Positions 50,343 to 50,466 of a stretch of 64,000 nucleotides of DNA are shown here, in pieces (position 1 is the stretch's first letter; every line of letters starts with the position of its first letter). Both the position numbers and the translations under genes were made by a program. The notes beneath the pieces are model-generated. The model had not been told where the DNA came from, ran no database searches, and worked only from the letters and a program-made list of their open reading frames with translations. The stretch lies in NCBI RefSeq assembly GCF_003334255.1, contig NZ_QOWU01000001.1; one strand, 5' to 3'. This DNA is from Escherichia coli. Lineage in GTDB: Bacteria > Pseudomonadota > Gammaproteobacteria > Enterobacterales > Enterobacteriaceae.

Positions 50343-50466
50343 TCGGATGCGGCGTGAACGCCTTATCCGACCTACGATTCGGGGCCGTTTGTAGGCCCGA
50401 TAAGACGCGCCAGCGTCGCATCGGGCATCCGTTGTCGCGTAAACGCTTTATCCGTCCAGGCGTACA
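50343..50466. repeat. REP/BIME cluster (three REP units) between convergent hemL and fhuB
   Basis: GTCGGATGCGGCGTGAACGCCTTATCCGACCTAC, then inverted GTAGGCCCGATAAGACGCGCCAGCGTCGCATCGGGC, then a third degenerate unit. Confidence 0.85.

Follow-up and report, generated by a model that had tools for sequence, protein, structure and literature searches.

A BIME-2-like REP cluster in the place of a putative ancestral hairpin between the convergent hemL and fhuB genes of Escherichia coli

The DNA considered here, which we call the window, is a stretch of 64,000 nucleotides from Escherichia coli (NCBI RefSeq assembly GCF_003334255.1, contig NZ_QOWU01000001.1) in which hemL and fhuB converge upon a short intergenic gap. 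With coordinates taken from the list of open reading frames and gene names from the RefSeq record of strain MG1655, the locus comprises the following elements.

49048..50328, + strand: hemL coding sequence (glutamate-1-semialdehyde 2,1-aminomutase, b0154 in MG1655), with its TGA stop codon at 50326-50328.
50486..52468, - strand: fhuB coding sequence (ferric hydroxamate ABC transporter permease, b0153 in MG1655), with a stop codon that is the reverse complement of 50486-50488.
50216..50542, + strand: spurious open reading frame of 108 amino acids that spans the repeats, out of frame in hemL and with its 3′ end antisense in fhuB.

The two stop codons leave a gap of 157 bp (50329-50485), in agreement with the preliminary description of this DNA, which had been made from the sequence alone. 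The window is K-12 DNA, and at this locus it shows 100% identity with MG1655 read as its reverse complement, window position x being 223930 minus the MG1655 position. The open reading frame that runs across the gap had been taken for an artefact of the repeats, and it behaves as one, as its middle part is swapped for unrelated sequence in the strains that lack these repeats. A text search of the literature for any mention of the stretch between hemL and fhuB, or of its 3′UTR, returned nothing, and in a paper devoted to PdhR the sole relevant entry is a site inside fhuB. The RefSeq copy of MG1655 lists no repeat_region feature at all, not even at 5565-5669, where the GenBank record of the same genome presumably has REP1 annotated, so that the missing REP annotation at hemL-fhuB is uninformative. 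On the other side of hemL, between this gene and clcA, RefSeq places yadX (b4765), which encodes a small protein of 15 codons, at about 48835-48882 on the - strand (MG1655 175048-175095), a position that corresponds to the divergent promoter region upstream of hemL.

The preliminary description had recognised in the gap a REP/BIME cluster made of three REP palindromes in alternating orientation. It was right to see such a cluster where the 3′ ends of hemL and fhuB converge. Two of the palindromes, U1 and U2, are indeed intact and inverted with respect to one another, whereas the third, U3, is a decayed remnant that is no longer palindromic. The elements of the cluster are, from left to right:

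50341..50375, - strand: REP U1, of y-type, GTAG-first on the - strand; its + strand reading is an 'iREP' that ends in CCTAC.
50342-50349/50364-50371 and 50351-50354/50359-50362: stem of U1, with a C50/U63 mismatch.
50376..50390, no strand assigned: linker of 15 nt, GATTCGGGGCCGTTT, joining U1 and U2 tail to tail, as read from the sequence.
50391..50426, + strand: REP U2, of z2-type, inverted with respect to U1, with GTAG at 50391-50394.
50395-50401/50420-50426 and 50404-50408/50413-50417: stem of U2.
50426..50460, - strand: U3, a decayed remnant of a y-type REP, oriented like U1, non-palindromic, with its GTAG/CTAC tail lost.
50461..50474, no strand assigned: partial second copy of the linker, CGTACAGGGCCGTT, identical to 50376-50389 at 10 of 14 positions, within the 47-nt direct repeat D1.
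50465..50497, no strand assigned: fourth hairpin, CAGGGCCGTTA / TAACGGCTCTG, with an 11-nt loop (inverted repeat I3).

A strict REP core pattern (GATGCGRCG N3-9 CGYCTTATC) matches U1 at 50346-50367 on the + strand and U2 at 50399-50422 on the - strand, and it is found five times in the whole window, against 0.00 expected from 100 shuffles. Alignment to the REP consensus, which had been put forward as a check, leads to the same view: compared by blastn-short with the REP consensuses, U1 agrees with that of the y type at 31 of 32 positions, and U2, in the opposite orientation, agrees equally well (31/32) with that of the z2 type, which aligns to it over 32 nt as against 14 nt only for the z1 consensus. 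A detector requiring both GTAG and a palindrome retains U1, where CTAC at 50372-50375 is GTAG on the - strand, and U2, and these two only. The corresponding hairpins are stable (-21.1 kcal/mol, z = -4.8, for U1 and -23.4 kcal/mol, z = -4.6, for U2), and both form whichever strand is folded (-19 to -23 kcal/mol, with z from about -4.2 to -4.8), with an internal mismatch or bulge visible in the stem of each; the entire gap also has a more stable fold than its shuffles, with z = -3.6 on both strands.

The right half of the cluster is of a different nature. Together with part of the linker, U3 forms a direct repeat of U1 and its own linker, at an offset of 85 nt and with 33 of 49 positions shared (P about 4.5e-9, uncorrected for how many offsets were compared); 23 of the 35 positions of the REP part and 10 of the 14 of the linker part are conserved. 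U3 keeps 7 of the 12 pairs of the U1 stem, what was the CTAC tail is now CAGG, and the fold of its + strand, at -8 kcal/mol (z = -0.5), is no better than that of shuffles. The linker copy at 50461..50474 marks the right end of a BIME of 1.5 copies. The fourth hairpin, of 11 bp, pairs this copy with the last codons and the stop codon of fhuB, and CUUUCUC comes after it on the hemL strand. Its folding energy is -17.0 kcal/mol (z = -5.0) in the RNA of the + strand and -14.1 kcal/mol (z = -4.0) in that of the - strand. It is missing in the short allele described below; in the long allele, to which it is confined, it puts the fhuB stop codon inside a stem.

REP/BIME clusters at the 3′ ends of converging genes in E. 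coli K-12 have been described since the 1980s-90s, and the polymorphism of BIMEs between strains is documented. The present cluster is BIME-2-like and an ordinary member of this long-described class, with the order y (U1), 15-nt linker, inverted z2 (U2), decayed y (U3) and partial linker, which makes 1.5 y-z2 copies between about 50338 and 50474. The kind of element is already known, and the sequence is part of the K-12 reference. According to the definition of Gilson and Bachellier, as given in PMC3333891, a BIME-2 associates y and z2 units, separated by a short linker, in tandem copies the number of which varies between strains. The hemL-fhuB cluster is similar in the opposition of y and z2, in its linker of 15 nt, in a repeat unit present more than once, in its extragenic position at the 3′ end of genes and in its strain-variable presence; it departs from the type in that there are 1.5 copies only, with a second y made non-palindromic by decay, and in that its U1 is an unusual variant of the y unit, GTCGGA...TCCGAC, common to a cluster located between cpsB and cpsG. 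A tandem multiplication of y-z2 may be reflected in the 49-nt direct repeat, with no copy-number variants among the long alleles sampled. REP copies are otherwise dispersed, megablast locating 50,814 places in 5426 genomes, with a median of 9 per genome.

Three other systems have been considered. With BIME-1, or RIP, the cluster shares an inverted pair of REPs in an intergenic gap, and we rejected this assignment: BIME-1 associates y with z1 around a long L linker, to which the IHF site, WATCAANNNNTTR, belongs (PMC3333891), whereas U2 is z2 and not z1, the linker has 15 nt and there is no IHF consensus in 50329-50485. The binding of IHF, which figured among the functions listed in the preliminary description, is for these reasons unsupported. 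The Rfam family naRNA4 (RF02564) was also rejected, its best match, at 50394-50457 on the - strand, reaching 46.6 bits (37.7 and 32.2 for the others) when the gathering score is 59.5; the model of this nucleoid-associated RNA (REP325) is built on a REP pair, and the likeness reflects shared REP sequence only. As for the REPIN/RAYT system, U1 and U2 make up an inverted REP pair that has the GTAG tails and the stem mismatches that TnpA-REP needs for binding, together with CT cleavage motifs, GACC/TAC in U1 and GGCC/TACA on the other strand of U2, and a doublet 90% identical to this pair is present elsewhere in the genome. In contrast with a REPIN, the y and z2 arms differ and the fold is made of two hairpins, not of a single long one; the transposase gene (TnpA-REP, or RAYT, is yafM in K-12) is outside the window, and the copy at hemL-fhuB may have been mobilised by an enzyme of this kind.

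The preliminary description regarded the cluster as normal K-12 content. This is true of K-12; in the species as a whole the locus is polymorphic, and of 5426 complete E. coli genomes only 1701 (31%) have the cluster, with its 157-bp gap, among them those of K-12, BL21 and ATCC 8739. A long allele of the K-12 type (at least 99% identity) is carried by about 1552 genomes, again with BL21 and ATCC 8739, while a second long haplotype of the same length, 92-94% identical, is found in about 150 (L087 301-471, L088 301-471, L003 394-564). The genomes without the cluster, as seen when the ranked records were sampled at even steps, have a gap of 34 bp with one unrelated GC hairpin (L002 401-434, L004 401-434), which reads TTTTGCCTCGCCC-ACC-GGGCGAGGCATTC, also written GCCTCGCCC-ACC-GGGCGAGGC, with GCCTCGCC/GGCGAGGC as the arms of its stem. 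In the same even-step sample this short allele is met in phylogroup B1 (IAI1, O111), in B2 (536, NC101, ST131) and in O157:H7.

Other species help to tell which of the alleles came first. Among the matches listed, hemL and fhuB are convergent at 51 of 80 loci and lie 30-238 bp apart; these matches comprise no Salmonella, and the genus Escherichia is represented by 'Escherichia sp. ESNIH1' only. Two Citrobacter genomes (L007, L008) have a gap of 36 bp with the same GCCTCGCC/GGCGAGGC stem at the same place, and Enterobacter sp. Bisph1 (L031) has an orthologous hairpin where a compensatory double change has taken place. Because the hairpin is orthologous in Citrobacter and in Enterobacter, which are the only outgroups of this comparison, the short allele would be ancestral and the K-12 cluster derived. 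The event looks like a replacement rather than a simple insertion, the ancestral hairpin being gone and no target duplication being recognisable. The boundaries of the long allele likewise bear no recognisable insertion signature, and homologous recombination with DNA of another lineage, instead of local transposition, could have brought the cluster in. Just after the hemL stop codon, at 50329-50332, the K-12 long allele reads TCCA, like Citrobacter (TCCATTC...), where the short allele of E. coli reads TGAT; TCCA may be a trace of the ancestral sequence in the long allele, four bases being too few to judge.

As far as their sequences tell, other genera appear to have filled the same gap independently, with repeats of their own. 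A crude detector finds GTAG-tailed REP pairs or arrays specific to the host in the gap of 16 of the 51 listed loci, one of them being a likely false positive, and Kosakonia (L020) and Siccibacter (L025) have REP arrays of four or more units. Repeats of the CCCTCTCCC/GGGAGAGGG type occupy the gap at 6 of these 51 loci; palindromes of the form CCCTCTCCC...GGGAGAGGG, often then followed by GGGGTGAGGG, are found in Pseudocitrobacter, Buttiauxella, Superficieibacter, Enterobacter and Pluralibacter (L015, L019, L028, L014, L017, L027), and they may be boxC-like repeats rather than REPs. Within E. coli itself, a y-z2 doublet located between cpsB and cpsG (strain IAI1, L086 701-786) is 90% identical to U1-linker-U2, with a similar linker, the same variant of the stem and the same left flank, GTTTG. 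It is possibly a sister or source copy of the hemL-fhuB doublet, and a paralogy at this level is consistent with the copying of a REP doublet.

This landscape is what one would also expect, in part, from a purely selfish or neutral insertion, the hairpins of which would be kept solely by the element's own copying or by homogenisation: the cluster is missing in 69% of E. coli genomes at no obvious cost, U3 is decaying, and unrelated repeats occupy the same gap in other genera. We nevertheless find this explanation rather unlikely, as some stable hairpin is present in the gap in essentially every genome examined, and as the long haplotypes do not vary evenly. The stems of U1 and U2 are constrained while the rest drifts: none of the 14 variable sites of the gap falls in the 48 stem positions (hypergeometric P = 0.0046), six being located in U3, five in the 15-nt linker and three in the loops. 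Homogenisation among REP copies, and not selection for an RNA function, could also make stems invariant. The diverged linker, looked for in the about 150 genomes concerned, is found at one place per genome, and with no donor locus at hand gene conversion was rejected as its source. The hairpin present in essentially every genome, together with the invariant stems of U1 and U2, suggests that a hairpin function is needed at this place and was taken over by the REPs.

What this function might be is a matter of distances and of RNA ends. In the REP mechanism of Liang, Rudd and Deutscher, which reportedly acts on translation, a model could be found in which U1 would stall terminating ribosomes and thereby lower the output of HemL. 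The stem of U1 begins at 50342, that is 13 nt past the end of the hemL stop codon (50328), inside the range of at most 15 nt from the stop codon where a REP is reported to lower translation, according to a passage quoted in PMC12306157. The ancestral hairpin is closer still, only 7 nt past the same stop codon, and such a function would therefore not be specific to REPs; as an explanation of the cluster we deem it unlikely.

Supercoiling is another matter. The binding of DNA gyrase, also listed in the preliminary description, fits the y + z2 make-up of the cluster, which is that of BIME-2, and is plausible by analogy. It is quite doubtful, however, that we are dealing with a strong gyrase site of the BIME-2 type, removing positive supercoils between the convergent hemL and fhuACDB units. 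The location between convergent genes would be appropriate, and Topo-Seq cleavage sites, mostly located in y REPs and independent of transcription, are enriched in a subset of BIME-2 (PMC6379681); yet this subset alone is cleaved, the members that are named being multi-copy arrays, such as sucC-sucB and tldD-yhdP, whereas the hemL-fhuB cluster has 1.5 copies only. In that part of the supplementary text of PMC6379681 which could be searched neither hemL nor fhuB appears, and two thirds of E. coli strains have no REP at all in the hemL-fhuB gap.

The weakest proposal, a bidirectional intrinsic (Rho-independent) terminator common to hemL and fhuB, might be prompted by the several stable GC-rich hairpins lying between convergent genes and by the CUUUCUC that follows the 50465-50497 hairpin on the hemL strand, and it is highly improbable, as a search of both strands of the gap for a hairpin followed by a T-run found 0 candidates versus 1.0 expected, as the curated Term-seq table of PMC7815308, which covers three conditions, has no 3′ end in the gap (MG1655 1734xx-1736xx), and as bicyclomycin-sensitive readthrough puts termination on the hemL strand about 590 nt downstream. 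The 3′-end mapping data, put forward as a check in the preliminary description, thus fail to support a role as terminator in the intrinsic sense, and the region where Rho acts lies further down. This region and the RNA fragment discussed with it come from published data sets, and correspond to two features of the + strand.

50500..50914, + strand: C-rich, G-poor stretch leading to the Rho region, on the hemL strand and antisense to fhuB.
50306..50381, + strand: putative RNA of 76 nt, AC0173 (PMC12306157, Table S1; MG1655 173,549-173,624, - strand).

Supplementary file 2 of PMC7815308 places a Rho termination region at MG1655 173016 on the - strand, which is window 50914 on the + strand, antisense in fhuB and about 590 nt past the hemL stop codon, with a score of 8.6 (p = 1.7e-22). 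The reads upstream and downstream of this point are 226/19 in untreated cells versus 216/157 in the presence of bicyclomycin. A weaker region of the same file (score 3.8), at MG1655 173376 on the + strand, or window 50554 on the - strand, is also inside fhuB, and it must be kept in mind that the resolution of these scores is about 800 nt. The GC skew is -0.13 to -0.22 at 50500-50750. As the Rho regions are inside fhuB, transcripts of hemL would read through the cluster into antisense fhuB. AC0173 consists of the 3′ end of hemL with U1, and it ends 10 nt past the U1 stem; it is down-regulated under micro-aerobic conditions, and it is defined by RNA-seq boundaries only, PMC12306157 reporting no northern blot for it and its main text being silent on it.

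A general model that relates such observations has been proposed (PMC6061677): Rho terminates transcription downstream, and PNPase and RNase II then trim the RNA back to a stem-loop devoid of a U tract, which is sometimes a REP. The hemL-fhuB locus resembles the REP stabilisers of this family (malE-malF and others, PMC6061677) in having stable hairpins without a U tract just past a stop codon, C-rich RNA with a Rho region downstream, and a short RNA whose end lies just past the first REP. It differs from them in that no 3′ end is entered for hemL-fhuB in the curated Term-seq table.

We are therefore led to propose, with a probability of about 70%, that the best overall explanation of the cluster is that of a mobile REP doublet which replaced an ancestral hairpin and now guards the 3′ ends of two convergent mRNAs. 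In one lineage of E. coli, a mobile REP doublet such as those processed by TnpA-REP/RAYT would have been copied into the place of the ancestral single GC-rich hairpin, which most E. coli and related genera have at the convergent 3′ ends. The present analysis establishes the anatomy of the locus, its polymorphism and its ancestry, the constraint on its stems, and the fact that neither an intrinsic terminator nor an IHF site is found; mobilisation by a RAYT, protection against exonucleases and any effect on translation are what we infer. Transcription of hemL would pass through the cluster until it is stopped by Rho, at a distance of several hundred nt and antisense within fhuB, after which 3′-to-5′ exonucleases would shorten the transcript as far as the stable REP hairpins. 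The latter would define and protect the 3′ ends of the mRNAs, U1 for hemL, U2 and/or the stop-codon hairpin for fhuB, the same job being done by the ancestral hairpin in other strains. U1, 13 nt past the stop codon of hemL, may in addition slow the termination of hemL translation. Stabilisation of the mRNA is thus the best supported of the functions listed in the preliminary description, exonuclease protection at this locus being a likely step. Against a dominant hemL 3′ end set by a REP stands the curated Term-seq table, where no end falls at U1 in the three conditions.

It is tempting to go one step beyond this replacement of a protective hairpin by a REP doublet, and to see the gap as a recurrent landing pad, where the RAYTs of various genera would insert structure-directed elements of the REP type at the expense of that hairpin. 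The E. coli replacement would then give a lineage-specific, post-transcriptional tuning of hemL (haem synthesis) and of fhu (ferric hydroxamate uptake), two iron-linked functions, with AC0173 possibly behaving as a trans-acting small RNA. Taken as a whole, this joint reading is speculative and we consider it very improbable.

As a matter of annotation, the hemL-fhuB cluster matters little. The added value is in its context: the cluster is a lineage-restricted substitute for what appears to be the ancestral hairpin, and repeats have apparently settled in this gap time after time. Nature has set up here a clean experiment, with about 69% of E. coli genomes keeping the presumed ancestral 34-bp hairpin and 31% having the REPs instead, as two haplotypes; along 200 nt of flanking coding sequence, K-12 and a short-allele strain do not differ. 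The contrast between these alleles bears on whether REPs do more than a plain hairpin does, be it for mRNA 3′ ends, for the termination of translation or for supercoiling.

The cluster had also been singled out as the largest repeat block of the window. This is only marginally true, as positions 7763-7886 hold another cluster, of about 2.5 units. It is BIME-2-like as well, made of half a y unit, an inverted z2 and then a y, and it occupies a gap of 199 bp between convergent open reading frames (6884-7762 on the + strand and 7962-8672 on the - strand). This cluster matches the Rfam naRNA4 model with 92.8 bits, above the gathering score. We take naRNA4 to be derived from REP325, about 4 Mb away from 7763-7886, and because of this distance the model appears to cross-match ordinary y-z2 pairs. 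At 10277-10301 on the + strand there is a lone REP, the core of which, GATGCGACGTTTGATGCGTCTTATC, is z2-like. Among other RNA features recognised by Rfam, all on the - strand, are a 16S rRNA of which the window edge leaves only the 5′ end (1-170), a sub-threshold Ysr197 (292-539, 145 bits vs 167), CssrA (33147-33256), t44 (34095-34181) and the HtrA 5′UTR thermometer (43051-43096). The only tandem repeat of the window is located at 59073-59120, with a period of 18 nt, 2.7 copies and 76% matches.
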